Position numbers and translations under genes: made by a program
The notes under the pieces: model-generated
Told to the model about the DNA's origin: nothing
The model's input: the letters and a program-made list of their open reading frames with translations, nothing else
Databases searched by the model: none
Shown here: in pieces, positions 1-45,670 of the stretch
Layout of the letters: every line of letters begins with the position of its first letter
How positions within the stretch are numbered: position 1 is the first letter of the stretch
Source of the DNA: Candidatus Altimarinota bacterium
Lineage (GTDB): Bacteria > Patescibacteriota > Gracilibacteria > BD1-5 > UBA6164
DNA length: 64,000 bases
Direction of reading: 5' to 3'
Assembly (NCBI GenBank): GCA_041694155.1
Contig: JASMTS010000014.1
Location: forward strand, 20,583 to 84,582

Positions 1-548
1 TAAAAGATGAATGAGAAAAACTGGTAGCTAGTTGTAGAAGCCCAGAATACCACTCTATAATAGATACTCTTGATTGATATAAAGATTATTTTATAGCTTA
101 TGGAGGTCATAAGCAAGCAGCTTGATTTTCCATATCTAAGGATAAGTTTGCAGAATTTAAAACAAAAATAATAAATGAACTTAATTCTAAAGATTTTTCA
201 CATTACAAAAAAGAAATAAATATTGATAAGGTGGTTAAATTAGAGGAGTTATGATTTAATTTTTTAAGGGAAGTTAATAAATATAAACCTTTTGGTATAT
301 GAAATGAGAAACCGCTTTTTATGGTTGAAAATCTTGATTATGATAAGCTTGATTTTATAGGTAAATGAAGAGATCATCTTAGGTTTACTACTAAGCATTG
401 ATATAAAATATTTGCTTTTTATATGTGAGACTATTACGAGCAAATAAAAAGAAGTTCAACAAAACCTAGTTTGATTTTTGATATAAGTGAAGACTCTTGG
501 ATGTGAAAGAAAAATCTTATGCTAAAAGTTGTAGATATAATTTTATAA
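1..548 (+). CDS. recJ: single-stranded-DNA exonuclease RecJ, C-terminal part (5' end outside window)
   Basis: Open from nt 3 to TAA 546-548 with TGA=Gly. Translation contains FIAYGGHKQAAGFSISKDKF and KPFGIGNEKPLFMVENL, which are conserved RecJ C-terminal motifs. Confidence 0.7.
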
Positions 549-560
549 TAATATTTTTTT

Positions 561-1037
561 ATGGAAATATCTCAAAAAATAGTAGATTATGCTATATGGT
601 ACTATCTTAAATACTATCCATCTAAAAAAAAGCTATCAAAAAAGCTTATAGATAAATTTTGACCAAATAGTGAAAATGGTAAAAAATATTGAGGTATATG
701 AGGTGATGAAATATCTTATATTTTAGACAAAAAAATGTCTTCTATTATAGATGAGGAAGCAGTCATATTATCTAAAATAAGGTCATATAAGTCAAGATGA
801 AAATCAAAACTTTATATAAAGCAAAAGCTTTATGAAAGGCTTGAACCAAAAGAAATGATAGATGATTTTTTATATCAAGAATTTATAGATTGAGAAATGG
901 ATTCTTTAGAAAAAGAATATAATAAATTAAAATCAAAAATAAGAAATTATAAATCAGAAAATGAATACAAACAAAAGCTTATTCAAAAACTTATGATGAA
1001 ATGATTTAGTTATGATGATATAAAACAAATTATATAA
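561..1037 (+). CDS. recX: RecX-like regulatory protein
   Basis: 158 aa with TGA=Gly. Helical repeat protein ending KQKLIQKLMMKGFSYDDIKQII, resembling RecX three-helix repeats. Lies directly downstream of recJ. Confidence 0.5.
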
Positions 1038-1132
1038 AAGCTAGAATTTAGGTTCTAGTTTTTTTAATTTTGAAAAATAATCAAAAATATATAATATAAG
1101 ATATAGTTATTAACTTAAGATTATAAATACAT

Positions 1133-2392
1133 ATGTCTCAAACTATTATATGTCCTAATTGTTCTACAAAGATAGACTTAGATCAAGTAGCAAACCAAAA
1201 ATATAATGAACTTTTAAAAGAACAAGAGCAAAAACTTAGACAAGAACAAGCCAAACAAAAAGAAGAGTTTGATAAGGAGTTGGAAGAAAAGACCAAGGCA
1301 ATGAGAAAAAAAGCTCAAGAATATGCTGAAAAAAAAGCACTAGAAGCTAAAAAAGAAATGGAGTATGAGTTAAAAGATGTGCAAGAACAACTTCAAAAAG
1401 CACAAAAAGATAGGGAAGAAGCTAGGAAAAAGGAATTAGAATTTTTGAAAAAACAAAGAGATTTAGAGGATAAAGAAAAAAACTTTGAACTAGAGATGGA
1501 AAAAAAATTATACGAAGAAAGGAAAAACATTCAAAAAGAACTAGAATCAAAAATGGAAGAGTCATCAAAGAAACAAATGGATGAAAAACTTGAAAAAATA
1601 GCAGAAGATTATAGAAAAAAAGAGCTTGAAAATTACAAGCAACAAGAACAAATGAGAAAAACTATAGATGATTTAAAAAGAAAAGCAGAACAATGAAGTC
1701 AACAAATACAGTGAGATATTAGTGAGGATGATTTAAAAAATAGCTTATCACAATCTTTTCCTTATGATGAAGTTGAAGATGTTCCAACATGAATAAAATG
1801 AGCTGATTTAATTCAAACAATAAGAGATAATTTTTGACAAAAATCTTGAGTTATAGTTTGGGAGTCAAAAAATACCAAGTCATGGCAGGATGCTTGGGTT
1901 ATGAAATTGAAAGATGATAAATTAAAAGTAGGTTGAAATATAGCTATTTTGGTTACAAGTGTTTTACCAAAAGATATCAAACATTTTTGACTGGTAGATG
2001 ATATTATGGTTTGTTCTCCTGATTTTGCTATACATGTTGCCGGTATGCTTAGAGATAAACTTCTTTCTATATCTAAGGTAGAAAAATCTATGGAGTGAAA
2101 GGATGCCAAGATGGAAATGTTATATAAGTATTTATCGAGTGAAGAGTTTTCAAGTAAAATGAATATGATGATAGATGTTTTTTCTAATCTTAAGTCTTGA
2201 ATTGATGCAGAAAGAAGAGCTATGGAAAAAAATTGGAAAAAAAGAGAAAAAGATTTAGAAAGAGCTACTTTTGCTGTTAGCGGTATGTATTGAGAATTGG
2301 AAAGTCTTATGTGACAAAGTCTTCCTTGATCAAAAATGTTAGAATTAGATGAACCTGATTATGATGAAGATAAAACTGACTTAAAAAATTAA
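1133..2392 (+). CDS. DUF2130 family protein (N-terminal CxxC, long KE-rich coiled coil)
   Basis: Track ORF 1133-1696 continues in frame through TGAs to TAA 2390-2392 (419 aa). C-terminal region VWESKNTKSWQDAWVMKL...VTSVLPKD...MVCSP matches the DUF2130 pattern. Confidence 0.6.
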
Positions 2393-2402
2393 TAATTATA
2401 AA

Positions 2403-2816
2403 ATGTCTGAAAAAATGTCTTTTGATTTTGGTTCAAGAGAACCAACTTATAAGAGAAAAATATTAAAAAATATAATAGTAGATAGAAAAAGTAAGTATAG
2501 TGTTGTATGATGATTTGTATCTTCAAAGTCTGATGTAGATGATTTTATAAAAGACTTACTTAGTGATAAATACTTTAGAAAGTCTACTCATAATAGTTTT
2601 GCTTTTAGGGTGTGACTTGATAATTGATCAATATTAGAATCAAAAAATGATGACTGAGAAACATGAGCAGGTATGTGCATACTTAGAGAGCTTCAAAGAG
2701 AAAATATGATTAATGTAATAGTTGTAGTTACTAGATATTTTTGATGAATACATTTACAATCAGATAGATTTAAAAATGTTATTGATTGAACAAAATTAAT
2801 TTTAAAAGAAATTTAA
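2403..2816 (+). CDS. YigZ/IMPACT N-terminal domain family protein (UPF0029)
   Basis: 137 aa. Contains SKYSVVGGFV, HNSFAFRV, DDGETGAG and VVVTRYFGGIHL, all typical of the YigZ N-terminal domain. Confidence 0.7.
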
Positions 2817-2819
2817 AAT

Positions 2820-3476
2820 ATGAAAATAATAAAAAGTCTTGGTAAAAAAATAACTTTAAAAATTGATGAAACAGGTGAGCTTATAGTTAGGTCGCCTGCT
2901 TTTGTTAGTAAAAAAAAGGTACAAGAATTTATAGAAAAAAATAAAGAGTGGATAGCAGAAAAAAAAGATGAAGCTATAGAAAAGATAAAAGAATTTAGGG
3001 AGTGAGAAAAGTTTTATTTTTTCTGACAAGAGTATGAACTAGTCTTTGATGATGTTAGTGAAGATATTTATTATGATGGTATGAAGCTTTATTTACATAA
3101 AAGGCATAAAGTTGTAATTAAAGAAAAATTAATAGAATTTTATAAAAAAGAAGCAAAAAAATATATAGTTCCTAGAGTCAGAGAAATAGCATCCAAAAAT
3201 TGACTTGATTATAATATCGTAAAGATAACCAGTGCAAAATCTAGATGGGGAAGCTGTACAAACAAAAAAAATCTTAACTTTACATATAGGCTTATAATGG
3301 CTCCTACTAGATCTATAGACTATGTTATAATACATGAGTTGGCTCATCTTAAACATATGGATCATTCAAAAAAGTTTTGGGATTATGTTCAAGAGCTTAG
3401 TAGTTCTATGTATCCTTGAAGTTATAAAATAAATGAGCAATGGTTAAAGCAAAATGGTTCAAAGATAATGTATTAG
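2820..3476 (+). CDS. YgjP-like (DUF45, M48 family) metallopeptidase
   Basis: Track ORF 2820-3005 extends through TGAs to TAG 3474-3476 (218 aa). SRWGSC...IDYVIIHELAHLKHMDHSKKFW contains the HExxH zinc motif of DUF45 proteins. Confidence 0.75.
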
Positions 3477-3563
3477 TTTTTTACATTATTTTTACATTTT
3501 TTTAGTTTTTAACAATAAATGTTAAAAATAATTGTACACTATAATTTATAAATAATATATAAA

Positions 3564-4196
3564 ATGGAAATAAATAATTCTTTATTAAATGATTTTAAAA
3601 ATAAGGATTCTAAATTATTGGCAGTTACAAAGTATTTTGATAAAAATAAAACTAATGAATTATCTGATATATTGCTAAAAGATTATAATGATATTGTAAT
3701 ATGATTATGAGAAAATAGGGTTAATTCATTAAAAGAAAAAAATCTTGATAGAGAATCGACTCATTTTATATGAAATATTCAAACAAAAGAAATAAAGCAT
3801 ATAATAAAATATTGTATGTATATACATAGTGTAGATGATATAAAACAATTATATAAAATGGAAGAAATATGCTCTAAGTCATGAAATTGGATTCAGATTT
3901 TTCTTCAAATAAATATTGATGAGACAAAACCTGGTTGAATAGATATAAGTGATATACCAAAATATTTAGAAATAATATGAGACTTAGAAAATGTAAGCCT
4001 TATAGGATTTTCTTGAATAGGTAAAAGTGATTTTACTATCGAAGAAAAAAATAAAGAATTTCAATTATTAAAAGAACTTAGAAATAAATATTTACAAAAT
4101 TGACTTGTATCTGCTGGTACTTCTGTTGATTATAAAATAGCAATTGAAAATGAAATAGATATTGTAAGAATTGGTTCAAAATTATTTAATTTATAG
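3564..4196 (+). CDS. YggS-family pyridoxal-phosphate homeostasis protein
   Basis: 210 aa. LLAVTKY (PLP lysine), THFIGNIQTKE, IHSVD, SAGTSVDY and RIGSKLF follow the YggS/PLPBP pattern. Confidence 0.7.
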
Positions 4197-4200
4197 TTAT

Positions 4201-4836
4201 ATGAAAAAACAAATATTATTTATATGATGAGGAGAAGCTTTTGAAAATTTTTATAATAAAGACTTTATAAAAAACAAATTAGATTTTTATAAAAATGATT
4301 TTGATTTTAATCCATTTTTAGAGAAAACTACTAATTGGAAAGACTATTTATCTTTTGAATTGGAATCAAAATATGATTTTATAAAAATGTATAGACCTAT
4401 GTCAGATAGTGCTATTTATGATTTTTGGAAGATATCATTTGAAAAAACTCTGTATTTTTTGAATGAAAATCCTGTACTTATATGACATAGTCTTTGAGCT
4501 ATTTTCTTAATTAAGTATTTTTGTGAAAATCCTAAAGCTTTAAATAATATAAAAAAGATATTTTTTGTTTCTACACCTTTAAATGACTCTAAAGATGAAA
4601 TTTTATGAAGTTTTAATATTGATAAGACTCTTATAAATAATATATTACCATATCAAAGCAAATTTTCTTTCATTCATAGTTTAGATGATGAAATTGTTTC
4701 AAGTAATGATTTTTATGAACTAAAAAAATTGTTAAATAATTCAGAGTTTTATTCTTTTGATAATTATGGTCATTTTATTTTTAATGATGAATTCCCAGAG
4801 CTATTAGATTTGATAAAAAATATTGATTATGAATAA
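4201..4836 (+). CDS. alpha/beta hydrolase (YdeN/RBBP9-like serine hydrolase)
   Basis: 211 aa. Nucleophile elbow LIGHSLGA, later acidic residue SLDDEIV, and GHF near the C-terminus. Confidence 0.55.
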
Positions 4837-5275
4837 TATAATATGAAATAGTTTATGAACTTGTGACGATTGAATCAATAAAAACTTCGTTTATTATATA
4901 AATGAAATTTTTAATAAAATATGAGTTAAGAGAGTAAAAAATGATATTTTGTTGAAGAATCATAAAATAGTTGAATTATTATCAATAGTTGAACCTGATA
5001 TTACAAATGATGTTACGGATGAATTATATAGATTATGATTGACTTATATATGACATTTTTCTAGTGAAAATGATGAACTATCTAAATTTTTAGAGAACAA
5101 TAAATCTGATATAAAAACATGAAAAATTTTGTTTTGATTTTTTTATGAGGGCTTAAAAATATCTCACGTAGTATTTGTATCTCAATATGTAGATACAAAA
5201 TATATTGATAATATAATAAATGATACTAAAAAAGATATAAATAAATCATTGCCATCTATTAATATAAACATATAA
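4829..5275 (+). CDS. hypothetical protein
   Basis: 148 aa ORF with TGA=Gly. Its ATG overlaps the previous stop (ATGAATAA). No recognisable motif. Confidence 0.4.
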
Positions 5276-5302
5276 AAAACACTTTTTTTAAAAAGTGTTT
5301 TT
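5275..5302. terminator. bidirectional hairpin terminator between convergent genes
   Basis: AAAAACACTTTT / AAAAGTGTTTTT 12-bp stem with a 4-nt loop, flanked by A and T runs. Confidence 0.6.
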
Positions 5303-5874
5303 TATATGTTTTTTAGATTTTTAAGTTCTCATTTTCATTTTACTATCAAGTATATGTGATAGGGAGTTTGTATTATTCATTTTCATATATTATATAATCA
5401 CTCTAGTCAAGCTACTAAACTATTGCTAGTTCATAATGCAAAACCTAATATATGTTCGTGAGGCATGTTAGGATTTTTGGCTACTCTTATAAGTTTATCA
5501 GGAAGAAATGATTCTATATTATTTTCTATGTCTTCAATTTTAAAATTCTTTTCTATATCATCTTTTAGAGTCATTATTTCAAAGTGAGCATTTTGTTCAA
5601 TACTTTCTTGTGCTCATTTTAATATCAAAAAAAGTTTTTCCTGCTCTTTTGTTTTTAAGTTTTCAAAAGAGTTATTACCAGATTCTATTAGTTCTTTTTT
5701 TAGGTTGTCTATTCATTTAGAAGTATCAATTTTTATTAATTTTTCTGCACTTTGTTTTTCCAATCAATAATTTTTTGATATATCTTCAGATAATTTATTT
5801 AATAACTCTCTTTGATTATCAAAATTTTCTTCATTTTGCTCTATTGATTGATTACGATTTTGTTCTATTGTCAT
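5302..5874 (-). CDS. hypothetical protein
   Basis: 190 aa on the minus strand with TGA=Gly. Its start overlaps the end of the upstream TPR gene by 23 nt. No known motif. Confidence 0.45.
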
Positions 5875-7393
5875 TTTCTTCTTTATTATTATTAATATTT
5901 TTAATAGTTTTATCTATCCAGTAGTCAATAGTTTTTATATATTCTCTATTTTTATCTAATTCTTTAGCTTTTTTAAAACTTTTTAATGCTTCTTCATATT
6001 CTCATTTCTTTGTTTTATATATTCAGTCAACCATTTGCAACATAGGATTATCACTATTTATTTCTAAACCTTTATTTATATTATTGTCTATTATTCTTTC
6101 TTGAACTCTACTCAAATTTTCATTTTGAAGCATAATCCATGACTGATATCAATAAAATAATTCAGATTCTGGATATCTTTGTTTTGCTTCTTCACTTATT
6201 TTTTCTGCATTATCAAGGTCAGAATTTATTATGTGATAATATATAGCTAAGTTATAATCTCTTATATCAAGGTTTTCAGATTTAGAATCTATTAATTCTC
6301 TAAATGTTTTTAACATTTTTTCTCTATCATCTATTTCAAAATATATAAAAATAAGTCTTCTCTTTATATCTTCTACATCATTATATCATATATTTATAGC
6401 TTTACTGAAGTGTATTACACTTAAAACATATTCATTTAATTTTTCATAAACTCTTCAAGTAAAATAACTCATTTCAGGGTCTTTTGTTTCTATTTTATTG
6501 TATGCTATTAAAAAGTCTCTTGCTTCTATATAATTTCATAACTCATATGCACTTTTTGCAGCTATTTTTAATACTGGTTTGTATCACTTGTTTTCATCTA
6601 ATATGTTTTTACTTGTTTCTAATGCTATTTTATAAAATCAATTTTTATAATATGCTCAACTTATTAATGCTGCCTTATATGTAAGATCATCTATTTTGAA
6701 ATTATAATAATTTGTAAAAGCATCTTTTATTGTTTGCATATTTTTATTTAATTCTTTTTTGTCTTCTTTGTTTTCTATTTCTTTATTTTCTTCATCTATT
6801 TTATCGAAATAATCTTGATATTTTTGCCTACAAAGTGAAAAATCATTTACACATGTTATTGAGTTCTTGTAGTAAAAATTATTTTGATCATCAAATCAAA
6901 AACTATCTATTTCATTATTTACATCTTGAACACTTCAAGAATTTGTTAAATCAACTGAATTTATATAACTATAAAGAGCTTTTTGTTTATCTAATTTTGG
7001 ATAATCTTTTATATTAGAATAAAAGTCATATGCTCTAGAATAATTTCATAATCTGTAATATATATCTCATATTTTTAAGTTAACTTCTCTATCTCATGGT
7101 ACTTTTCTATATACTTGTAGGTATTGAGTTAGGGCAGTAGTATATTCTTTGTTAGAAAAATATAGGTCTCACCTTGTTATAAGTCATTTTAGTTCTATTT
7201 TTTTTCTAAGTTCTTCTAGTCTTTTTGATGCATTTGTAGGTTTATTTGCTTCTTTTATTTCTTTTTCTAAAGATTCCAAGTCTCAACTAAATGATAATTC
7301 TTCTTGCTTATTAATATTATTATCTGTACTACAGCTAGTAAAAACAAGTGATAATAATGTTAATAAAATAATTGATACTATTTTTTTGTTCAT
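5852..7393 (-). CDS. TPR-repeat lipoprotein
   Basis: 513 aa. N-terminus MNKKIVSIILLTLLSLVFTSC is a signal peptide plus lipobox Cys. Repeated A..Y...G.Y..A TPR-like units follow. The plus-strand track ORFs at 6484-7502 are antisense artefacts. Confidence 0.6.
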
Positions 7394-34363: not shown

Positions 34364-34438
34364 AGTCCCATAGTTAAACGGCTATAATTCAGGACTCCAA
34401 ATCCTGCGTTCTAGGTTCGATTCCTAGTGGGACTGCCA
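34364..34438 (+). tRNA. tRNA-Trp (anticodon CCA)
   Basis: Acceptor AGTCCCA/TGGGACT, anticodon stem CAGGA/TCCTG with loop CTCCAAA, T arm CTAGG-TTCGATT-CCTAG, discriminator G, encoded CCA. Confidence 0.9.
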
Positions 34439-34440
34439 TT
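34418..34440 (+). repeat. att-like direct repeat copy 1 (3' end of tRNA-Trp)
   Basis: CGATTCCTAGTGGGACTGCCATT, identical to 34593-34615. Confidence 0.85.
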
Positions 34441-34592
34441 TACAACAAAAAATACCCTAAGCGAAAGCGTGGGGTATTTTTAGTTGTAAAAGATAATTTG
34501 TACTAAGGAATCGAAAGGAGGGTATTTGCGAATGCAAATATTTAATTGCGATGAATAAGAGCAATTAAAACGGTGTCTGACCCGAAGGGCAA
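34441..34592 (+). other. GC-enriched structured spacer between the two tRNA 3'-end copies
   Basis: Long hairpin TTACAAC-AAAAAATACCC...GAAA tetraloop...GGGGTATTTTT-GTTGTAA. Three short hairpins follow (TATTTGC/GCAAATA, TTAATTGC/GCAATTAA, CCC-GAA-GGG), enclosed by GGAATCG/CGATTCC. No ORF. Confidence 0.3.
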
Positions 34593-34615
34593 CGATTCCT
34601 AGTGGGACTGCCATT
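34593..34615 (+). repeat. att-like direct repeat copy 2
   Basis: Exact 23-nt copy of the tRNA-Trp 3' end with no 5' tRNA half upstream. Confidence 0.85.
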
Positions 34616-34697
34616 AAAAAATAAAAAAATTTATTGCACTTTTAAATATTATTTTTATTACTTATAAATTACTATTATAGTTTTTTCATATTAATAA

Positions 34698-36488
34698 TTA
34701 ATCTAATTGTTCTTTTATTTTTTCATATATTTTATACATAGCTAAACTATCTTGCCCACAATATAGGAGTAAATTCTTAATTTGCTCTTCCTTTTGTTTT
34801 CATGTAATTTTTCATTCAAATATTTTATTTAATGTATTCATAGCAACAAGTCAATTTTTCACTCACATTCAATCATAACTCATTTCAGGCACCATAGCTG
34901 GTAAAACATATTTAATAGAATTAGCCCCTTTAAAATTTAATGAATAATAATATCATTTTGAGAATATATCCATTAAATCATAGGTGTTTTCATTAATCAT
35001 CTCAAATTTATCTCTCAAATTTTCAAATGTTTCAGCTATTTTTTTATTTCTTGTATTTTCAAAAGCTTTATACCAAACTATAAAAGTTTTATCAAAATCT
35101 TCTCAAATATCAGCTACAAATTCATCTAATAAATCTTTATAAGATCATGTTATAACCTTTTCACTTTCAAAATCTACTTTATTGCTATTATTTTCGATTT
35201 TAAGATGTTCTACATTTTTTTCTCAATCTCATACTAAAACTCATCAAAAGTGTTTTATATCTCAATTTTCATACACTTTATGAAGACTATATTGAACTAC
35301 TACTTGTTGATATGGCGAAGTATTATCTAAAAAAGGAATTGGGACACAAAGAGTTTCATAATCATAAAAACAAATCGGATATTTTATATCATCAAATTCA
35401 TTTATAATTGATTGAATATCAATTAGGTCTTTTCATTCTTTTTTTGCTTGTAAATAATTTATTATATATTGTCTTGCTTTTCAAATCACATTTCAAGCAT
35501 TATTAAATTTTTCATGTTCTTCAATACTCAAGTCATCTAATTTAGTTTTTCATTCATAATGTAATTCTTTGACTGCTTTGGGGGAACTTAATCATTTTCA
35601 ATAAATAGTTCAAAACTCTCTTTCTTCTCAAAAATATTCTAAATACTTACTTCATGAAAAATTATGTATTTTATTAAACTCTTCTTCATTCAAAATTAAT
35701 TCATTTCTTATTTGTTTTATAGTTTCTTTTATAACAAGAGAAGTTAATAAAAAATCTTTCCTAATAAATTCTTTGTCTGATTCTTCTCAAATTAATAAAA
35801 CTTTTGATTCTATATCTACTTGATCTAAAATAACTATTTTATATAAATCTATTTCTCAATTTTTTTTATAATTTCAATTCAGATAAGCATAATAAAAATT
35901 TTCTATTTCTCATAGTCAATTTTGAGCTAAAACTTTGTTTATGACATACTTTTGAAATGAAATATCTGATAAAAACTTATTTTCTAATTCTCATGAATTT
36001 TTATTTTTCACTTTTTGGTGAGCTTTTTCTTTTCTAACATGAGTTTTAGCTTTTACTTCTATTAAATCATAGTTTCAATTTCCATTTAGTTTTAAGTAAT
36101 CTCATCTTACAAAAAGATTATCTATTAAAAATCAAGGTTGGTAAATTAAAGCTTCTTTATTTTTAATAGCTTCTATTGTTCTTTTTAAATTATTATCTCT
36201 TTTTGTTTTATAATCATCAGCTATTAAAGTCATATCTTCATCTTCTTCATCAAGAGGATTTTTAGCTGTATTATCTTCAAAAACATCAAGTTTTTCAAAT
36301 CAATATTTTTTCAGAAAATAATCTCAAACTAAATCTTCAACTTTTTGTCAAAGCTCTATCAATTGTTCTCATTGTTCTTCATCTTCTAGTCCTCTTATTT
36401 TTTTATATACAGGCATATTATTTTGTTTCCACCAAGCAAGTTTTGGAAATTCTTTATAATCTACAAATAATGATTTTGTTATTAGCAT
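34698..36488 (-). CDS. DUF2779 domain protein (N-terminal RecB/Cas4-like PD-(D/E)xK region, C-terminal DnaQ-like region)
   Basis: 596 aa. GDYLKLNGNGNYDLIEVKAKT (D..ExK). Further on, ICFYDYETLCVPIPFLDNTSPYQQVVVQYSLH and C-terminal LLLYCGQDSLAMYKIY match the DUF2779 pattern. Confidence 0.65.
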
Positions 36489-36610: not shown

Positions 36611-39600
36611 ATGGCTCAATTATTTAAGAAGAATATAGTAAAAGAAAAATTAAATACTTTTGAAATACCTAATTTAGAAGAAAAAATAGAAGTATTAAAA
36701 AAATGGGAAAAACTTCATAGAGAGGGGACATTAATAAGCAAAAAAGAAGAAGAGCTTGAATGACCTTTTTGAAGTGACTTTTTTGGTAAAATATTAGACT
36801 ATCATAGTTTTTGAGAAAATGAAATTTATAATAGGAAGTTTCAACCAAAAGTTCCAGAATGATGACAAAAAGCAGATATATGACTTTGATTTTTCTGAGA
36901 AAATATTGATATAATGAAAGTTGTAGTTGAATTAAAAGATGCTAAAACTTCACTTGATAAACCTCAACAAAGAGCCTGAAATCTTACACCTGTTCAACAA
37001 GCTTTTAAGTATAAGCCATATTTTAAAGATTGTGACTTTATTATTGTTTCAAATTTTAATGAAACAAGATTGTATATAGATAGTTATTATGACTACGAAG
37101 CTTGGACTTTATCAGATTTAATTAATCCATTTGATAATTATTTTAATTTTAGAAGATTTTATTATCTATTAAATAAACAAAATCTAATCATTAAAAAGTG
37201 AGAAAGTAATACAAAATCTTTGCTTTCTTATATAAGAATTCAAGAAAAAGAAATCACAAAACAATTCTATAAAGAATATACATTTTTAAGAAAAGAGCTT
37301 TTTAAAGATATAGTAACTAATAATCCTTGATTTAAAAAGACTGAACTTGATTTTTTATTAAATAAAACTCAAAAAATAATTGATAGAATTATTTTTATAC
37401 ATTTTTGTGAAGATTTATGACTTTTGCCACAAGATAAATTAAAAGAAGTTATTGAATATGGTGAAAAATCACTTGCCACTACTTGGGAAACATTATCTAA
37501 CTTTTTTAGAGCTGTTGATAAAGGTAGTGAAAAATTAGAAATTCCAGACTGATATAATTGAGGTCTTTTCCATGAAGATACAGAATTAAATAATCTAAAA
37601 GTTTGAGATAAAATCTGTAAGAAATTTATAGATATGTGAGAATATAACTTTGCTGATGATTTATCGGTAAATATTTTAGGTCATATTTTTGAACAATCTA
37701 TAAGTGATATAGAAGAATTAAAAGACAAAATCAATAAACAAGAAGATGCTACTTTATCAAAAAGAAAGAAAGATTGAGTTTTTTATACTCCTGAATATAT
37801 AGTTGATTATATAGTTAAAAATAGTGTTGGTAAAAAAATTGATGAATGGGAAGACGAATTGAAGCAAAAGCATAATCTAAAAGAAAATATTACAGACAAA
37901 AACTATAATAAAAGAGCTATTTTAGTATATGAAGAACTACAAAACAAAGTTCATAATATCAAAGTATTAGATCCTGCTTGTTGAAGTGGGGCTTTTCTGG
38001 TTAAAGTTTTTGATTTTTTACTTGATAAAAATAAGGAAATATCAAAAAAACTTGAAGATTTGTGAGTTAATCAAGGTTTATTTTCAAGTGAAAGTTATTT
38101 TAGAACAATACTTAAAAATAATATTTATTGAGTTGATTTAAATGAAGAAAGTGTTGAGATAACTAAACTATCTCTTTGGTTAAAAACAGCCCAAAAAGGT
38201 AAAAAATTGGCTAATCTTGATAGTAATATTAAGTGTGGTAATTCTCTTATTGATGATAAAGAAATTGCATGAGAAAAAGCTTTTTTTTGGGAAACTGAAT
38301 TCAAAGAAATTTTTGATAATGGTTGATTTGATGTAGTTGTAGGTAATCCTCCTTATGTTTCTACAAAACAAATTAATAAAATTGATAGAGATTTCTTTTG
38401 GAACACATATTGAGATATACTAATTTGAGAAATGGACTTATATCAAATTTTTATTTATATTTCATTAAATAAATTATTAAATAAATCATGAAATTTAGGT
38501 TTTATAACACCTAATTCTTATTATACTAATAAAAGTTTTAGTAAGTTTAGAGATTATATATTTAAAAATACCTCAATTTATCAAATTATAGATTTTCCAT
38601 ATAGATTTTTCCCATTTGATGAAGTTAATACTGAAACATCTATAATAACATTAAAGAATAGTTATAATTATAATAATTTTATTAATTTAGGAAAAATTGA
38701 TAAAGAAAAAATAAATTATTCAAGTAATTTAGATTTATCTACATATTTTAATAATTCATTTAAGCAAAATGATTTTTTCTCTATATATAAAGAAAAAATA
38801 GTAATTGATGCAAATAGTATTCTTGAAAAGTTAATTAATATAAAAGATGTTTTTTGAGGTCATTTAGACTTACATAAATGATGGATGAGTATTCCTAATT
38901 CAACTGAAATTTCATGAGAAAAATATGATAAATGAACTTTTTCTTATGAAGAAATTAATAATTCAGAAATATTAAAAAATAATACTATAAAATATTTAGA
39001 ATGAAGAGATATACATAGGTATTATATAGATAATACTTCTAAGTATGTAAATATATCAAATATTGATGAAAAAACAAAAAAATGGCATATTAGTGAAAAA
39101 ATTGCATTACAAAGAATTGTATGACAAAATAAAAGTAAAATATTTGCAACTTATGTATGAAGTGAATATATAATTTTTCCTAATGCAAATTTAGTTAATA
39201 TAAAAGATAATAAAAATAATATATATTATTTTTTATGAATTTTAAATTCTAAGCTAATAAATTATTTTTATTGAAAATACTATTGAGAAAGTAATACAAA
39301 TATAACAAAAGATGCATTTGAATTAATACCATTTGCATGATTTAAAAATGAAGAAGAAATTATAAACAATGTAATATCAATAATTGATAAAAACAAAAAA
39401 CTTCAGAAAAAAGTTAATAAATTTATCAAAAGATTAAAGAGTAGTTTTGAAATAGAAAAATTATCTAAAAAATTAGAAGCTTTTTATGATTTAGAGTTTA
39501 GTGATTTTGTAAAAGAATTGAAGAAAAAGAAAGTAGAATTGAGCCTTAAAGACCAAGATGAATGGGAAGAATATTTTGATAGTTATAAAAAAGAAATTTT

Positions 39601-39706
39601 AGAATTGAAAAGTGAAATTGATAATTGTGATAAAGAAATTGATGAAATGGTTTTTGAGTTGTATGGATTGAGTAAAGAAGAAAGGGGAGTTGTTTTAAAT
39701 AGTTAG
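36611..39706 (+). CDS. type IIL/IIG restriction-modification enzyme (MmeI-like nuclease, N6-adenine methyltransferase and specificity domain in one polypeptide)
   Basis: 1031 aa. N-terminal ADIGLGFF...VVVELKDAK...IIVSNFNETRLY (D-ExK, MmeI-like). SAM motif VLDPACGSGAFL and catalytic VVGNPPYV (NPPY at 38345-38356). Long C-terminal target-recognition region. In frame with track ORF 39518-39706. Confidence 0.8.
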
Positions 39707-39724
39707 ATTTTAAATTTTTAGATT

Positions 39725-40018
39725 ATGGAGAAAGTAAAAGAAGATATTTTATTTCATGAATCATGACTTAATAAATGATTTTATACAAACTTTAATCAAT
39801 ATACTTCAAATATAAATAATTTCAGATGAAGTTTAATTGTTTTTTCTTGATGATTAATTACTTTTTTAATTTTTTTCACAAAAGATATACAAAATCAGTG
39901 AATATTAGAATTTTGTATTATTTTTTCTCTTATTATTGTTTTTAATTTATCTGTATTAATTTGAGTTGTTTTTCCTATACTTCATTTGAAAATTAACTTA
40001 TATAGAAATTATTTATAG
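39725..40018 (+). CDS. small membrane protein, hypothetical
   Basis: 97 aa with two predicted TM helices. Starts 19 nt after the R-M gene. Confidence 0.35.
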
Positions 40019-40057
40019 ATTGATTTTATTTCTATAGTAAAAAAATGTAAAATCAAA

Positions 40058-40252
40058 ATGAACTTTAATCCTGAAAAATTTAATAAAATTGATATAGATA
40101 AATATAAAAAAGAAACATTAAATTTTCAATATAAAAATAATAATTTACCTTGGTACTTTAATGCCTTTATTATATTAGAGAATACTTTTATTATTATATT
40201 TATAGTATTTCTAATAATACTTTTAATTAGTTTATCAATTTATTATATATAA
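40058..40252 (+). CDS. small membrane protein, hypothetical
   Basis: Track ORF of 64 aa with a C-terminal TM helix FIIIFIVFLIILLISLSIYYI. Confidence 0.35.
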   Translation: MNFNPEKFNKIDIDKYKKETLNFQYKNNNLPWYFNAFIILENTFIIIFIVFLIILLISLSIYYI

Positions 40253-40361
40253 ATATATTTTAATAATATCAATATTAAATCAACTCAATCCAAGGGAATA
40301 AGCTTTTTTATAAATATAATAAGCGATGTAATAGATAATTTATAATTCACAAAATCAGATT

Positions 40362-40790
40362 ATGTTTAATTTTTTTACAAGTAAAAAAGATAATGAAAAA
40401 CAAAAAATAGAATATTTTGAAAATGTTAAAAGTGCTTCTTTATTTTTGGATAAATCTATTTTAACTATATCAAGTGCTTTTCTATGATTTTTATTATCTC
40501 AGTTTGAAAATTTATATGAAATAAAATCACAATTGTTAAACATTATATATTTACATATATCAATTATATCAATTTGATTTACAATATTTTTTGTCTTAAT
40601 TTCATATATTTTAAGCATAAAGCAAGCGAAAATATGATATGATATTTTAGAAAAAAATATTCCTTATGATAAATGAATCATTACTTTTAACAATTATGAT
40701 TTATTTATCGACTTATTTAGAATAATTTATTTTGTTACTTTTATTATTCCTATAATTCTAACAGTTTTATTTTACATTAGTAATTTTTAA
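40362..40790 (+). CDS. membrane protein, hypothetical
   Basis: 142 aa with three hydrophobic segments. Codon-by-codon reading with TGA=Gly ends at TAA 40788-40790. Confidence 0.4.
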
Positions 40791-40949
40791 TATAAATGTC
40801 TGAACAAAAAAAAGAAAAAATTGATAAATCATCAAATAATAGACCTCCTAAAAAATAAAAAAGAACCTAAAGATAAATAATTACCTATAAATAACTATAT
40901 GATAGAGCTTGTTTTATAGTATGACATATTAGTAAATAACTTTAAAATA

Positions 40950-41747
40950 ATGGAATGACTTATCTCACCTAAATATTTAGTAAAACTTATCGATGAAATT
41001 AATGATGTAATTTGGAAAGAAATTTGATGATATAAAAAAGTATTGTTTTATATAAAAAGATGGCATGAAACTAATGAAGAATATAATATGAATTATTGGG
41101 AAAATTTCCCAATAAAATATCAAAATGATACAAATAATATTGACCTATTAGCTACTATAAATGAAATGCCTAATAATATTATATTGAAAATAGCCATTGA
41201 TTTATGAATTGAAACACCAGATTTTATACCATTAATACCTACTTTTAGGAATAATTTAAAAGATAGTTATAAAACATCTTTTCAATCATTTGAAAAAGCA
41301 TTTAAAGAAGTAGAAGATAATCCTGATATGGCTGTATGATTAGCTAATTCAACATTAGAAAGTATAATAAAACATATATTAAAAGATGAAAAAATATCTG
41401 CTAATTTAGATAAAAATAAAACATTATATAAATTAACTGAAGATATATTAAGAGAATTTTCAATGTTTCCTTCAAAAGAAGCTATGAATGAAATAAAAAC
41501 AATTTGAAGTTCTTTATTAAATGCTTCAAAACATATTGAAGAATTAAGAAGTAATAAAACTCTATCTCATTGAAAAATATTAGAAGATTATATAGTTAAT
41601 GATTCTTTATATGCTTATTTTATTATAAATGCTGTTTCGACTATATGAATATTTTTAATTAGTTTTTATAATAAAAAATACAAAAAAATAGAAAATAGTG
41701 ATAATAAAGAATTTGAAGAAATTTCAGTTGAAGACATACCTTTTTAA
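40950..41747 (+). CDS. abortive-infection C-terminal (Abi_C-like) domain protein with C-terminal TM helix
   Basis: 265 aa. NPDMAVGLANSTLESIIKHIL ... KHIEELRSNKTLSHGK resembles the Abi_C helical domain ending in the R-N-x-x-x-HG motif. The helix AYFIINAVSTIGIFLISFY follows. Confidence 0.45.
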
Positions 41748-41756
41748 TATAATTTT

Positions 41757-42422
41757 ATGATAGAAGAAAAAACATTTAGTGATATTAGAAGAAATTATAT
41801 ACTATCATCTGTGATATTTATTTTATTTCTTATTTATTGATGAAGAATAGAAATAAATAAAATTCTATTTTTTGATTTAAGTTGAGAATGGTATTATTTT
41901 TCTCCTTTTATAGATATATTTATATTGCTTTTAATTTTCTTTTTATATACATTTATTAGATATATAATTTATGCTAAATATGAAATTAAAGAGAAATGAT
42001 ATTATTTTAATAGACTATATAGATGAATAAAAAATACTAATATTGATGATTATTCTAAAAAAATATATATTAATGAAAATAAAAAAGAAATTATATTAAA
42101 TTGAATATCTATTAATAAACGGAGTGGTAAAAATGAATTAGAATTACAATTATCCTATAAAGATTGAAATATAAGTTGAACTAACATTAGTATAAAAAAA
42201 ATAAAACAATATTCTTTTAATAAAAATGAAATAACTTTTGAGTTCTTATGAAGTAAAGTTATTTTAAGAACAAAAGAATGAAAAAATAATTATTTTAAAA
42301 CAGACTATTCAAAGTTTGTCTTTGATTTGGATTATTCAAATTTTATTTGGCCATTATCATTAATTTTTATAATATATTTTATATTAATTGTTAAACTTAC
42401 ATACTTCCTATTTTATAACTAA
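41757..42422 (+). CDS. membrane protein, hypothetical
   Basis: 221 aa with N- and C-terminal TM helices flanking a soluble region of about 110 aa. Confidence 0.4.
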
Positions 42423-42556
42423 AAAGAAATCATTATTTAATAAACAATTTCTAATTAATTTGTGTATTTTATTAATAATTTAACTTTTCTTATATTGTAG
42501 CTAAAAAACTAACTGTATTTTTATTTAATACATTTAAAAGTTCTATGTTATTACCA

Positions 42557-42576
42557 GCAGTGCTGCCATTAAAAAA
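42557..42576 (+). repeat. degenerate third copy of the tRNA-Trp 3'-end att repeat
   Basis: CAGTGCTGCCATTAAAAAA compared with TAGTGGGACTGCCATTAAAAAA at 34599-34621. There is a 14-nt exact core CTGCCATTAAAAAA. Confidence 0.45.
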
Positions 42577-42579
42577 AAT

Positions 42580-42606
42580 ATCCCCCTATCATATAGATAG
42601 GGGGAT
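42580..42606 (-). terminator. GC-rich rho-independent terminator
   Basis: ATCCCCCTATC / GATAGGGGGAT 11-bp stem followed on the minus strand by a T run. Confidence 0.7.
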
Positions 42607-42609
42607 TTA

Positions 42610-42975
42610 TTAGTCAGTCAGCTCTAGGTAAGCTTTGAATTGCTTTCTGAGGACTGTTAGTTTGAAGGGCTTATCAACTACTATAGTTCTAACTATAGCA
42701 GTAAAGCCTACTTCATCATTTTTTGTGTCTTCTGTCTGGCCTTTTATTATTTCAAATGAGCCAAACCTTACCAAAAATTCAGTTATAGAGTCAAAAAGAC
42801 TCCCACTAAAATACAAGCGAAGGAGAACTGGTTTTTCTCCTTTGTCTATATAGTTATGCTTACTCTTTTTTTCTACTCTTTTTTTGAAGTTTTGGTAAAT
42901 CTTTTCTTTTTCTTCCTGGCTTAGTTCTTTTTTTGTACATAGCTGAGGAAGAGCCATATGAAGATGTTTTTTCAT
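42610..42975 (-). CDS. hypothetical protein, compositionally foreign
   Basis: Track ORF of 121 aa. No TGA codon (Gly codons are GGA, GGG and GGC x3). Uses C/G-ending codons that are rare elsewhere in the window. AGGAG lies 7 nt upstream of the ATG. Confidence 0.5.
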   Translation of the reverse strand: MKKHLHMALPQLCTKKELSQEEKEKIYQNFKKRVEKKSKHNYIDKGEKPVLLRLYFSGSLFDSITEFLVRFGSFEIIKGQTEDTKNDEVGFTAIVRTIVVDKPFKLTVLRKQFKAYLELTD

Positions 42976-43106
42976 TTTTTTACTCCTTTTTTGTCAAAAA
43001 ATGTTCTTACATAATAAAATAAAAATTATTTTAGTCAATTTTAGTTTGCATATAATCATTTTTTATCTAATATAATAAAAAGAAATATTATATTTTTAAT
43101 CATCAT

Positions 43107-43886
43107 ATGATGAACTCAAGTAACCAGAGTCTTGATATAACAAAGTTTGAGGAGTTTTTGTCTATAAATAGTATAGAAACACCTAATGAACTACAAGAAG
43201 TACAACAAATAATAAAAGTAGAGATACAAAATATACTGTGAACTAATGCTCTTTCTGAATTGTTGATAAAATCAAAAGAGTATTGAATTATCACTATAAG
43301 TGAAAATCTTATAAACAAGTTTGAACAAGAAAAAGAACTAAAAATACTTTGAGTTGATAAACAAAAGCTTATAGATGATTTGATTACTAGAGCATGAGCA
43401 GAGCCTGTTTTTGACTGAGTTATAAAAGATATTTATTATGACTTTTATAATGATCAAATAGAAAATACAAAGTGAAAAACTAGCTTTAGAGTTAGAGAAA
43501 AAATAGATAGCGAAGGTAATTCCAAATTTTATTATACTATAAAAAGAAAAGAAAAAAAAGATAAAGATTCTGCTGTTATGAGAGTTTGTTATGAAAAAGA
43601 ATTCAAAATAAATAATATAATGTTATTTATAGAATTGCTTAATTATTTGTGATTCAAAAAAACTAGAGCTAAGTCAAAAAACAGGCAAGCTTTTGAATTA
43701 TGAAAAATAAAATTTGATATAGATGATTATTCTGGTATTCCAACATTATTGGAAATAGAGGCTGAAACATCAGAAATAGCAGACTTTTATATAAATGCAT
43801 TATGACTCGATAATCATGAAAAAAATAATGGTTGATCTAGATCATTATTTGAAAGATATGGAGTTGAGTATAAAACATTTGATTAA
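43107..43886 (+). CDS. CYTH-domain protein (CyaB class IV adenylate cyclase / triphosphatase-like) with N-terminal extension
   Basis: 259 aa. FRVREKIDSEG...YYTIKRK...FKKTRAKSKNRQAFELGKIKFDIDDYSGIPTLLEIEAE follows the CYTH beta-barrel pattern. Confidence 0.6.
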
Positions 43887-43922
43887 AAAAATAACATAAG
43901 TTAAATCTTATGTTATTTTTTT
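43885..43922. terminator. bidirectional hairpin terminator
   Basis: AAAAAATAACATAAG / CTTATGTTATTTTTT stem. Confidence 0.6.
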
Positions 43923-45670
43923 GTATAGCATTTTTTTTCAGATTTTTTCAGATTTTTTGTTATTTGCTTTGTATTTTATTAATGGTTTTAGATCAATATC
44001 TTTTTTATCATATTTTTTATCTAGCATTTGTATAACATCTTGAAGTTTTTCAAATACTTTGTCTTTTCATATATTTTCTATAAATCACACACTATGCAAT
44101 TTATTTACAACTTTTACTCTAAGATTTGTATAGTATACTTTTATTCATTGTTTTCTAAGCTTGTAATCAAGATCTCTTAGTACTACATAACTAGATGAAT
44201 CAATATTTCACATCCACTCAAAATCAAAAATCACTATTTTTAAATCTGGCTTTTCTGATATGTAATCAAGTACTTTGTTTTCAAAATGTCATACATTTGC
44301 AAAAAATAAGTTACCATCTACTCTAAAAACAGAAATATATTTTGATTTTTTTATCTTGAAAAAATTCGCATCTCTAAATACTCAATTTTTGTACATTGAT
44401 ATTTCTATTACTTTTGGTTTCATTGACCTGTATATATGAAAAGCTAGGGATAATATTACTCAAGTAGCTATTCATACTTCTACATTTGGGCTACTTATCA
44501 TTGTAATTATAAAAGTTATTATAGCTACATAGGCATCTTTTTTTTGTACTTTCCATGCTTCTACTATAGGTTCTATTTTTATGAGGTCAGCTACAGCTAT
44601 TATAATAATAGCAGCTAATGTTGCTATCGGTAAGTGGTATAATAGGGAGTAAGATATATAAGAGTTATTGCTACTATTATTCATGTAACTATAGATGACA
44701 TAGATGACTTGGCTCATGCTCTAAGGTTTACTGCTGTTCTAGAAAAACTTCATGCTACTCAATATCAACCAAATAATGATGATCATATATTTGCCGTTGC
44801 TTGTCATAATAATTCTTTATTAGCTGATACCTTTTGTTTTGTTCTTATTGCTACTCATTTAGCTACAGCAATAGATTCTGTGAATCATATTAGTCATATT
44901 ATAAAAGAAAAAATTATTATTTTATAAGTGTGTTCTCAAAATAATATTTCTTTTGAAAAGCTCAAGTCTAATGATGGTAATCAGCTTGGTATAACTCATA
45001 CAACACTTCATCAATATTGAGACTCAAATCATATATTATATGATATAATAATCGATATTACCAATAATATAAGTACTCTTGGTAATTTTTGTAAGTATTT
45101 TTTTAATAATATTAAAATTATTATTCATACAAATCAAAACAAAAATGTTATCAAGTGCATCTCATCAAGTGACTTTACTATTATTTGCCATATTTGTTCA
45201 AAAATACTTATTCATTTTGATATTGAAAATCAAAATATTTTTTCTGCTTGTGATATTATTGTTATAAGTGCTATAGCATTTGTAAAACCTACTATTACAG
45301 GGTGTGATAAAAATTCTACTATTATTCAGAGTCTAAAAATTGATAATAAAAGATATGTTATTCACATAAAAAATGCCATCATCGAAGCATAAATTATGTA
45401 TTCTTGGGTACTTTGAAGTCATAGTGTTCATAAAGTTGCAGCAGTCATTATTGATACTATTGTTACCGGTCATGTAGACATTTGCTTGCTAGATCATATT
45501 AGTCATCATATTATAACTCATATAAAAGCAGTATAAAGTCATACATATATAGGCAATCATGCTAATCAAGCATATGCCATAGATTGAGGTATCATAACTA
45601 GAGCTACAGTTATCCCAGCTAGTAGATCAGCTCTAAAGAATGTTTTTATTTTGTTTTTTAATTTTGTCAT
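43908..45670 (-). pseudogene. SulP-family anion transporter with C-terminal STAS domain, interrupted by a frameshift near 44640-44650
   Basis: The N-terminal frame (start 45670; LLAGITVALVMIPQSMAYA ... RTAVNLRAGAKSS ... LTP) stops at TAG 44624-44626. The rest (HLPIATLAAIIIIAVADLI ... STAS domain) is in another frame, which is the frame of track ORF 44472-44717. The total span is not a multiple of 3. Confidence 0.65.

Follow-up and report, generated by a model that had tools for sequence, protein, structure and literature searches.

A probable mosaic of independently distributed genes at a tRNA-Trp gene of a Gracilibacteria-type genome, with a type IIG restriction-modification enzyme and an AbiJ/Abi_C-type HEPN protein as its defence core

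The coupling of HEPN proteins to restriction-modification (R-M) systems is exemplified by PrrC-EcoprrI and by solo AbiJ, DUF4145 and Ymh HEPN genes located in R-M operons. Abi_C is the HEPN domain of AbiJ, and solo AbiJ-HEPN genes are often found in R-M operons, combinations for which a two-layer HEPN-R-M defence has been proposed (PMC3710099). SadR, an Abi_C protein of Staphylococcus aureus, cleaves RNA and protects against phages and plasmids; both the cleavage and the protection are lost when the R, N or H residue of its R-N-x5-H motif is mutated (PMC13590631). For the lactococcal AbiJ protein defence has been shown; its mechanism is not yet known (PMC13064643). DARNA (PD-T7-3), an HEPN tRNase, is activated by single-stranded DNA (ssDNA) bound by the phage SSB, the protein that binds such DNA (bioRxiv 10.64898/2026.02.22.705581). 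Here, a block of small genes lying next to an R-M gene at positions 39725 to 42422 of a 64,000-nucleotide stretch of Candidatus Altimarinota bacterium (contig JASMTS010000014.1; the whole stretch is referred to as the window) was examined. An initial annotation had presented this block as five genes forming a candidate for an undescribed abortive-infection module. The present analysis indicates instead that the island at the tRNA-Trp gene is probably a mosaic of independently distributed genes, the defence core of which comprises a type IIG R-M enzyme and a single AbiJ/Abi_C-type HEPN protein, and not one multi-gene system. The genes concerned, translated with genetic code 25 (Gracilibacteria-type, TGA read as glycine), are as follows.

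36611..39706, + strand: type IIG R-M enzyme, 1031 amino acids (Pfam Eco57I, E=6e-45, with MmeI_Mtase, N6_Mtase and TaqI_C; weak MmeI_N and MmeI_hel)
39725..40252, + strand: gene AB, a 175-amino-acid protein with three transmembrane (TM) segments, split into open reading frame (ORF) A (39725-40018) and ORF B (40058-40252) by an in-frame TAG at 40016-40018
40362..40790, + strand: gene C, a 142-amino-acid three-TM protein of a tiny Gracilibacteria-type family (ratio of non-synonymous to synonymous substitution rates, dN/dS, 0.30-0.36)
40950..41747, + strand: gene D, a 265-amino-acid AbiJ/Abi_C-type HEPN protein (Pfam Abi_C, PADLOC AbiJ)
41757..42422, + strand: gene E, a 221-amino-acid three-TM protein with an N-terminal TM hairpin, a beta-rich central domain and a C-terminal TM segment

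Gene D is, as judged from profile searches and family alignments, a full-length member of a widespread subfamily of ~260-amino-acid AbiJ/Abi_C HEPN proteins. A helical Abi_C-type pattern had been noticed in its C-terminal part, with the peptides LANSTLESIIKHIL and IEELRSNKTLSHGK quoted in evidence; both are present in D, and the pattern was borne out by a match to PF14355 at E=1.2e-8 (35.3 bits against a cut-off of 24), in which residues 161-237 correspond to positions 2-82 of the 83 in the profile. Of the 281 positions in the AbiJ model of PADLOC, 167-280 are likewise matched by D (E=2e-7). Since Abi_C is the hallmark of the AbiJ HEPN group, which includes SadR, a shown RNase, the statement that none of the proteins in the block matches a characterised defence system was wrong for D. 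A search of 5.8 billion proteins returned 1,375 matches to D, the best 120 of which are ~255-270 amino acids long, all carry PF14355 and are 50-60% identical to D at full length. The family, annotated as 'abortive infection family protein', reaches Bacteroidota, Patescibacteria and Gracilibacteria (Arcicella, Butyricimonas and Spirosomataceae being among the names returned), with only 5 members on viral contigs. Alignments of 41 and 56 members showed conservation along the entire length of the protein, including an invariant GLANSxLES segment that the initial annotation had also quoted. The motif R200-S-N-K-T-L-S-H207 is invariant at R200, S201, T204 and H207 in both alignments, and RSxKTxxHGK is kept in 117 of the best 120 family members. 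D is under purifying selection, with a dN/dS of 0.19. By homology, RNase function and a role in defence are most likely for this protein.

The predicted architecture of D comprises a conserved N-terminal alpha/beta region (residues 1-~120), a four-helix HEPN domain (125-244), a disordered linker and a C-terminal tip, VEDIPF. The AlphaFold2 (AF2) model, for which the input was the database copy of the protein with TGA read as tryptophan (8 glycine-to-tryptophan substitutions) plus 55 homologues, has a mean predicted local distance difference test (pLDDT) score of 81 and places helices at 125-144, 159-169, 176-202 and 219-244. The best folds in the PDB for this model are those of HEPN proteins, namely TM0613 (1o3u; probability 0.90, TM-score 0.55), TT1696 (1ufb; TM-score 0.62) and Csm6, with Foldseek E-values of 0.2-1.5. 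Comparison of the D-family profile with PDB sequences gave no significant match, and a Foldseek comparison of D with viral models was uninformative.

D had also been credited with a TM helix of its own following the Abi_C pattern, in which case residues 219-240 would form a real TM segment, and a tail-anchored D would hold its HEPN domain at the membrane. Residues 219-237 do have a mean Kyte-Doolittle hydropathy of 1.83 (the usual threshold being 1.6) and no charged residue, and the neighbouring genes encode membrane proteins. However, the segment falls within both the Abi_C match (to position 82 of 83) and the PADLOC AbiJ match (to 280 of 281), is conserved in all members of the family, and is kept even in those Bacteroidota genes that have no membrane partners, with N227 invariant and T231 and G233 nearly so. 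Moreover, it is predicted to be the fourth helix of a bundle that aligns with soluble HEPN proteins, and the basic residues come after it, such that in a TM topology the RNase domain, or else the conserved tail, would be extracellular. The segment is read here as helix 4, at the core of the HEPN domain, rather than as a membrane anchor; its hydropathy leaves a small doubt, and tail anchoring of D is considered very unlikely.

Set beside AbiJ, D is alike in that its C-terminal ~115 residues match the Abi_C profile along its whole length, and PADLOC's AbiJ model in its C-terminal part, with the R-x6-H motif conserved, and differs in its DD[L/I]PF-type tail and in its N-terminal ~120 residues, for which no Pfam AbiJ_NTD match (NTD1-5) was found at E<=1, D thus falling short of a canonical full-length AbiJ. 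SadR, compared by domain and motif, has the same Abi_C domain and the same spacing within the motif (RNEYGDAH in SadR, RSNKTLSH in D) and is likewise a single gene in mobile or defence regions, but host phylum and genetic code differ, and no SSB-like tail is reported for SadR. As with the solo AbiJ-HEPN genes described previously, D is a single gene beside an R-M gene (PMC3710099). D and its relatives are found within R-M operons of type IIG, ISP and type III, or immediately behind them, as in HEPN-R-M coupling, although in the window two membrane-protein genes part the R-M gene from D, and one D homologue occurs alone (locus L006). The resemblance to DARNA would be one of functional analogy, in that D, like DARNA, may be a single-protein HEPN abortive-infection system triggered via phage ssDNA-binding machinery; DARNA is a dodecamer of a 456-amino-acid protein with an N-terminal HEPN domain bearing Rx4H and a large C-terminal domain, and no sequence relationship with D was found.

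The R-M gene was confirmed to lie directly 5' of the block and in the same orientation. Its product combines an MmeI-like N-terminus, an Eco57I/N6 methylase and a TaqI_C specificity domain in one polypeptide, as in type IIG enzymes. The orthologous R-M protein of another locus (L016, 245-3922) shares 74.5% identity with it over the first ~610 residues, as against ~34% in the C-terminal specificity half, a pattern that fits target-recognition-domain swapping. Precomputed Y1_Tnp Pfam matches are also listed for the middle of the L016 protein.

The genomic contexts of D bear most directly on the proposal that the five ORFs constitute one conserved unit. The ORFs were found together only in locus L001, a 5-kb contig from another sample that is 98% identical to window positions 39466-44543, and beyond it only the D-E pair recurs, once (L007). 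In another Gracilibacteria genome the D homologue lies 12 nt after a 1057-amino-acid type IIG/ISP R-M gene (L003/L004). Elsewhere, D homologues are located between the mod and res genes of type III systems, accompanied in L009/10 by a NYN nuclease and in L012/13 by one of the OLD family; the L007 homologue follows a Shedu SduA_C gene, and that of Arcicella stands alone among housekeeping genes (L006). Neither AB nor C was found at any of these loci, and E was found at L007 only. The same picture emerged for gene C, whose four non-self homologues share 50-62% identity with it. These include one that follows an 829-amino-acid R-M gene and precedes a Bro-N/Fic pair (PADLOC PDC-S04, 6e-69; L019/20), one that follows a protein with a weak TIR-type match (L021/22), and one that follows the specificity subunit in an R-M operon, amid a PD-T7-4/DUF4145 HEPN protein, an Rx4H protein and a Hypoth_Ymh HEPN protein (L023); AB, D and E were absent from these, and in all C occurs at four other loci that lack AB, D and E. 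The L023 operon (141-6907) is a HEPN-packed R-M operon of Gracilibacteria type, in which the Rx4H protein has 186 amino acids and which also encodes a 247-amino-acid multi-TM protein. For gene AB, a search of species-representative genomes gave no relatives, and a scan of metagenomes yielded a single locus, L024, where it lies alone among housekeeping genes.

Each of AB, C, D and E can be found where the rest are missing, and a five-gene system is not supported; the genes are essentially not conserved together in other genomes, which largely undoes the case for an undescribed multi-gene system. Several features of the genes lend appeal to the idea that all five (really four) ORFs make up a single undescribed abortive-infection system with membrane-depolarising effectors: AB, C, D and E lie contiguously on one strand of one island, the segment from the 3' end of the R-M gene through E is nearly identical in the second strain (L001), three TM segments each are predicted for AB, C and E out of the four proteins, and homologues of C and E recur in defence islands. 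This idea is nevertheless highly improbable, given that the genes co-occur nowhere but in the 98%-identical strain, that in the window a stop codon disrupts AB, that no relationship links AB, C and E with one another or with known membrane effectors, and that gaps of 109 nt and 159 nt separate B from C and C from D, respectively.

The description of four of the ORFs as little more than TM helices needs correcting: the hydrophobic segments number three in each of AB, C and E, and E has in addition a beta-rich central domain of ~115 amino acids (~41970-42300). The three proteins have a common layout, consisting of a short N-terminus, a TM hairpin, a loop and a C-terminal TM segment; hidden paralogy between them was considered and rejected, the hhalign probability being <1%. 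Searches of Pfam, PADLOC, NCBIfam and PHROGs assigned AB, C and E to no family and returned only sub-threshold noise (MgtE, DUF3784 and PycTM); the PycTM match, to C, had an E-value of 0.19 and was not accepted. Similarly, when AB, C, E and their family members were scanned singly against known membrane effectors (PycTM, SLATT-type 2TM and others in PADLOC and Pfam), no match was obtained. As far as these comparisons allow, AB, C and E are mutually unrelated, lineage-specific (Gracilibacteria-only) three-TM families, and the D family as a whole requires none of them.

The contexts of C and E suggest lineage-specific accessory or independent defence functions, though housekeeping contexts occur too. 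On the latter view, AB, C and E would each be an independent single-gene defence or exclusion determinant (e.g. a membrane-acting Abi or superinfection-exclusion protein) of a kind that gathers beside R-M genes. The positions of C homologues right after R-M or specificity genes, amid HEPN genes (PD-T7-4/DUF4145, Hypoth_Ymh) and by PDC-S04, are consistent with this, as are the E homologue directly 3' of the orthologous type IIG R-M gene in L016, the purifying selection on all three genes, and an E central domain that is swapped or fast-evolving, as those of conflict genes would be. Conversely, the sole AB homologue and two of the six E contexts are among housekeeping genes, no C or E homologue was found on viral contigs, no PADLOC or PHROG family covers these proteins, and the sample is very small. 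Independent determinants are accordingly regarded as possible, though somewhat unlikely, and the mosaic with the R-M enzyme and D as its defence core is preferred.

Gene E belongs to a family for which 5.8 billion proteins yielded 8 matches; when 1.84 billion representatives were searched exhaustively with the family profile, 11 members and no remote relatives beyond them came to light. Its N-terminal TM hairpin is highly conserved (DIRRNY...YGGRxEI...RYxIY), as is the C-terminal TM segment, with dN/dS values of 0.16-0.18 in the TM regions; the structural model is of low confidence (pLDDT 60, with the centre <50). E follows D in the window and in L007, and occurs without D in four of its six contexts, namely after the R-M gene (L016), by an Rx4HxY protein (L017), among housekeeping genes (L014/15) and just upstream of polA (L025). 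Because E directly follows the orthologous R-M gene in L016, AB, C and D appear, relative to that locus, as an insertion between the R-M gene and E. The neighbour of E in L017 (2083-2700) is a 205-amino-acid protein with the sequence IELRNNIAHGY (Rx4HxY), no Pfam match and a weak match to PADLOC RTasHEPN (E=1.4e-3), which may represent an undescribed HEPN family.

Nucleotide identity between the window and L007 stays at 80-95% over the whole of D and ~210 nt into E, falls to ~45% at 41970-42300 and recovers in the C-terminal TM segment. Synonymous divergence (dS) between the two is 0.47 for D and 0.45 for the N-terminal 72 codons of E, with dN/dS values of 0.19 and 0.18, respectively, and the equal dS indicates that D and E were inherited together while the gene upstream changed. 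Other E homologues have in common a different, longer central domain. These data fit a central domain that is swapped or very fast-evolving, whether through cassette-like replacement or diversifying evolution, and E may serve D as an optional accessory, the two having been inherited jointly in one further lineage. A stronger proposal, that D and E form a two-gene module in which E, located in the membrane, would act on the HEPN RNase as its sensor, its antitoxin or a co-effector, with the central domain of E setting specificity, was also weighed. E starts 9-10 nt after D in both the window and L007, where the upstream gene is Shedu SduA_C and not C; D and the E N-terminus share their dS and a similarly low dN/dS, consistent with joint inheritance; the loss of identity is confined to the E central domain; and the L017 homologue adjoins an unrelated protein with an HEPN-type motif. 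Against this, an E family of 8-11 proteins compares with >1,300 relatives of D, E is missing beside the D homologues of L003, L006, L009 and L012, and E in turn is found with no D following an R-M gene (L016), by polA (L025) and among housekeeping genes (L014/15). A D-E module of this kind seems unlikely, and D is taken most likely to act as a single protein, with E perhaps as an optional accessory.

The reading frames on which these comparisons depend are sensitive to the genetic code. The G+C content of the window is ~23%, and with table 11 the region falls into short ORFs only; table-11 calls were dropped in favour of code 25 on account of this fragmentation. With TGA read as sense, long ORFs run across the whole window, including all five of those reported earlier. 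The reading of TGA as glycine is supported by RGG repeats in the tail of a DEAD-box helicase, by the DPACGSGAF and GNPPY methylase motifs, and by TGA codons 86, 130, 208 and 233 of D, which coincide with nearly invariant glycine columns of the D family. The five ORFs were recovered on the + strand at 39725-40018, 40058-40252, 40362-40790, 40950-41747 and 41757-42422, and with TGA recoded their reported lengths of 97, 64, 142, 265 and 221 amino acids were reproduced. Their coordinates thus stand, whereas their number does not, as A and B are halves of one gene, in the same frame and parted by a TAG only, giving four genes (AB, C, D and E). The spacing, described as tight, is so between the R-M gene and A (18 nt) and between D and E (9 nt), and less so between A and B (39 nt), B and C (109 nt) and C and D (159 nt). 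At the local composition, ~4 stop-free runs of >=97 codons and ~58 of >=64 codons are expected by chance per 64 kb, and 0.1 or fewer of >=142 codons; the lengths of A and B taken singly are not beyond chance, whereas those of AB, C, D and E are (<=0.1 runs expected). The signature of purifying selection in the dN/dS values of AB, C, D and E upholds the view that the small ORFs are real genes. Promoter-like sites in the region were no commoner than in shuffled sequence. A 20-codon ORF, MSEQKKEKIDKSSNNRPPKK, lies at 40797-40859, within the 159 nt that separate C from D; it is a candidate only, with no sign of gene status.

In L001, position 40018 gives TAT in place of TAG, resulting in a single 175-amino-acid ORF, and the AB homologue of L024, a 46-kb metagenome contig, is a single 176-amino-acid ORF that is 51% identical across the junction, with Tyr98 conserved. 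The dN/dS of AB between L001 and L024 is 0.43. ORF B is called separately on two contigs of the protein collection, which suggests that the TAG is a real allele and not a sequencing error of one assembly. By comparison with its two intact relatives, AB is a real lineage-specific gene with a derived nonsense codon in the window (a pseudogene or split gene), and is here probably non-functional or at best expressed as two fragments.

The extreme C-terminus of D has a likeness of its own. The tip of SSB is the peptide by which that protein recruits its partners. Its sequence is DDDIPF (PMC5872125); D ends in VEDIPF (the last 25 residues being encoded at 41673-41747), and the tip of the D family, an almost invariant acidic-[L/I]-P-F, most often reads DDLPF. 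Among the best 120 family members (P0001-P0120), 108 end in PF and 90 fit the pattern [DE][DEN]?[LIVMF]PF$. The tip is preceded by a low-confidence, presumably disordered linker of ~13-25 residues in the family, residues 247-265 of D having pLDDT values <50, and the combination of an acidic-[L/I]-P-F sequence at the extreme C-terminus with a flexible linker before it is that of an SSB-type tip. Since the PADLOC AbiJ model stops where the last helix of D stops, linker and tail seem to be an addition of the subfamily. D resembles SSB in the acidic-acidic-[L/I]-P-F-COOH terminus after a disordered linker, and differs from it in having no OB fold, D not being an SSB, and in the shortness of the family linker. 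Literature searches for a link between the SSB tip and Abi_C or HEPN proteins, or for a DD[L/I]PF tail, found nothing. Phage ssDNA-annealing proteins (SSAPs) rely on SSB C-terminal tails (PMC12054835), and the lactococcal AbiJ escape mutants carry changes in phage ssDNA-annealing or ssDNA-binding genes (PMC13064643). It could be imagined that the tail of the D subfamily is an SSB-tip mimic, a bait or dock for phage ssDNA-annealing or replication proteins that switches on the HEPN RNase, with E serving in some Gracilibacteria as a dedicated three-TM partner with a cassette-like hypervariable domain. The bait-or-dock part of this suggestion derives from resemblance between motifs, and the suggestion as a whole is speculative and distinctly unlikely; were the mimicry real, it would explain AbiJ-type escapes in phage SSAP or ssDNA-binding genes.

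The setting of these genes in a tRNA-linked island beside an R-M gene, as originally described, was substantiated by the following features.

34364..34438, + strand: tRNA-Trp (CCA), found with ARAGORN; integration target and left end of the island
34595..34621, + strand: att-like left boundary, a direct repeat of the 3' end of tRNA-Trp that shares 89% identity with 34420-34446 in the tRNA
34698..36488, - strand: DUF2779 protein, 596 amino acids (Pfam PF11074, E=1e-27), island cargo
42550..42576, + strand: att-like right boundary, a third and degenerate copy of the repeated 3' end of tRNA-Trp, found by repeat search
42580..42606, either strand: bidirectional terminator-like hairpin (11-bp stem, 6 GC pairs) outside the island, between E and a convergent 149-amino-acid ORF

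Three copies of the tRNA-Trp 3' end are thus present, at 34420-34446 (inside the tRNA), 34595-34621 and 42550-42576, and the last two bracket an island of ~8 kb that holds the genes for DUF2779, the R-M enzyme, AB, C, D and E. The 14-mer CTGCCATTAAAAAA, common to these two repeats, occurs exactly twice in the 64 kb (34608 and 42563), against 0.00 expected. A Pfam scan detected no integrase or other recombinase domain in any ORF between the repeats. Between the first copy and the second lies a 175-nt piece, perhaps left over from an earlier insertion. Terminator-like sites of the kind at the right edge number 5 in the region, compared with 0.5 expected.

The comparison with L001, which covers the R-M 3' end through E and not the left end of the island, showed only 2 differences over ~3.1 kb (39466-42572), one of them the G>T change at 40018. 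To the right of 42572 the sequences diverge by ~5%, mostly at synonymous sites, with a dN/dS of 0.06 in the CYTH gene; the first difference in the flank is at 42573, and the right repeat marks the end of near-identity. The contrast between 2 differences inside and ~5% divergence in the flank points to recent exchange of the island segment, at least from the R-M gene to E, between strains, by transfer or recombination. The ~5% divergence outside the island is that of the CYTH and STAS/SulP genes. The features on this side of the island are as follows.

42610-43059, - strand: 149-amino-acid ORF with no family match, just outside the island
43107-43886, + strand: 259-amino-acid CYTH-domain protein (E=8e-8), just outside the island
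43908-45670, - strand: a pair of ORFs that overlap in different frames, of 348 amino acids (SulP-like membrane domain) and 269 amino acids (STAS-like C-terminus)

The last two ORFs, their translations having been judged by eye, look like one sulfate-permease-family gene with a frameshift, or an assembly error.

Several observations weigh against a mosaic with an R-M and HEPN core. The RNase activity and defence role of D are assigned by homology, the structural matches to HEPN proteins carry weak Foldseek E-values, and the N-terminal region is unlike the described AbiJ N-terminal domains. The contexts inspected, six independent ones for D and five or six for each of the small families, are a small sample. 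C and E are found next to R-M or HEPN genes more often than random membrane proteins would be, a hint of some functional link that a mosaic does not explain, and the 9-nt gap between D and E, with recurrence of the pair in L007 at the same dS, means that E could be a true partner.

If the preferred interpretation is correct, the R-M enzyme would form the first line of defence, and D would back it up as a second-line, single-protein abortive-infection RNase. The HEPN domains of D would dimerise to create an RNase site from R200 and H207, which the N-terminal region would hold inactive until infection, whereupon cleavage of RNA would bring about growth arrest. The tail would probably serve to dock D onto binders of SSB tails, for instance phage proteins of recombination or replication, or to let D sense them.

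The main use of this work lies in the correct annotation of a locus in a code-25 genome, in which standard pipelines fragment such genes. The locus would represent a familiar design, in which an R-M enzyme on a small mobile island has an HEPN RNase of the AbiJ/Abi_C type as its backup, in Gracilibacteria, organisms for which almost nothing is known about phage defence. The three tiny, Gracilibacteria-only three-TM families that recur by R-M and HEPN genes are candidate lineage-specific defence accessories. Finally, the tail of the D family, taken together with the AbiJ escape mutations, offers a testable idea of how a common and mechanistically obscure family of Abi proteins may sense infection.

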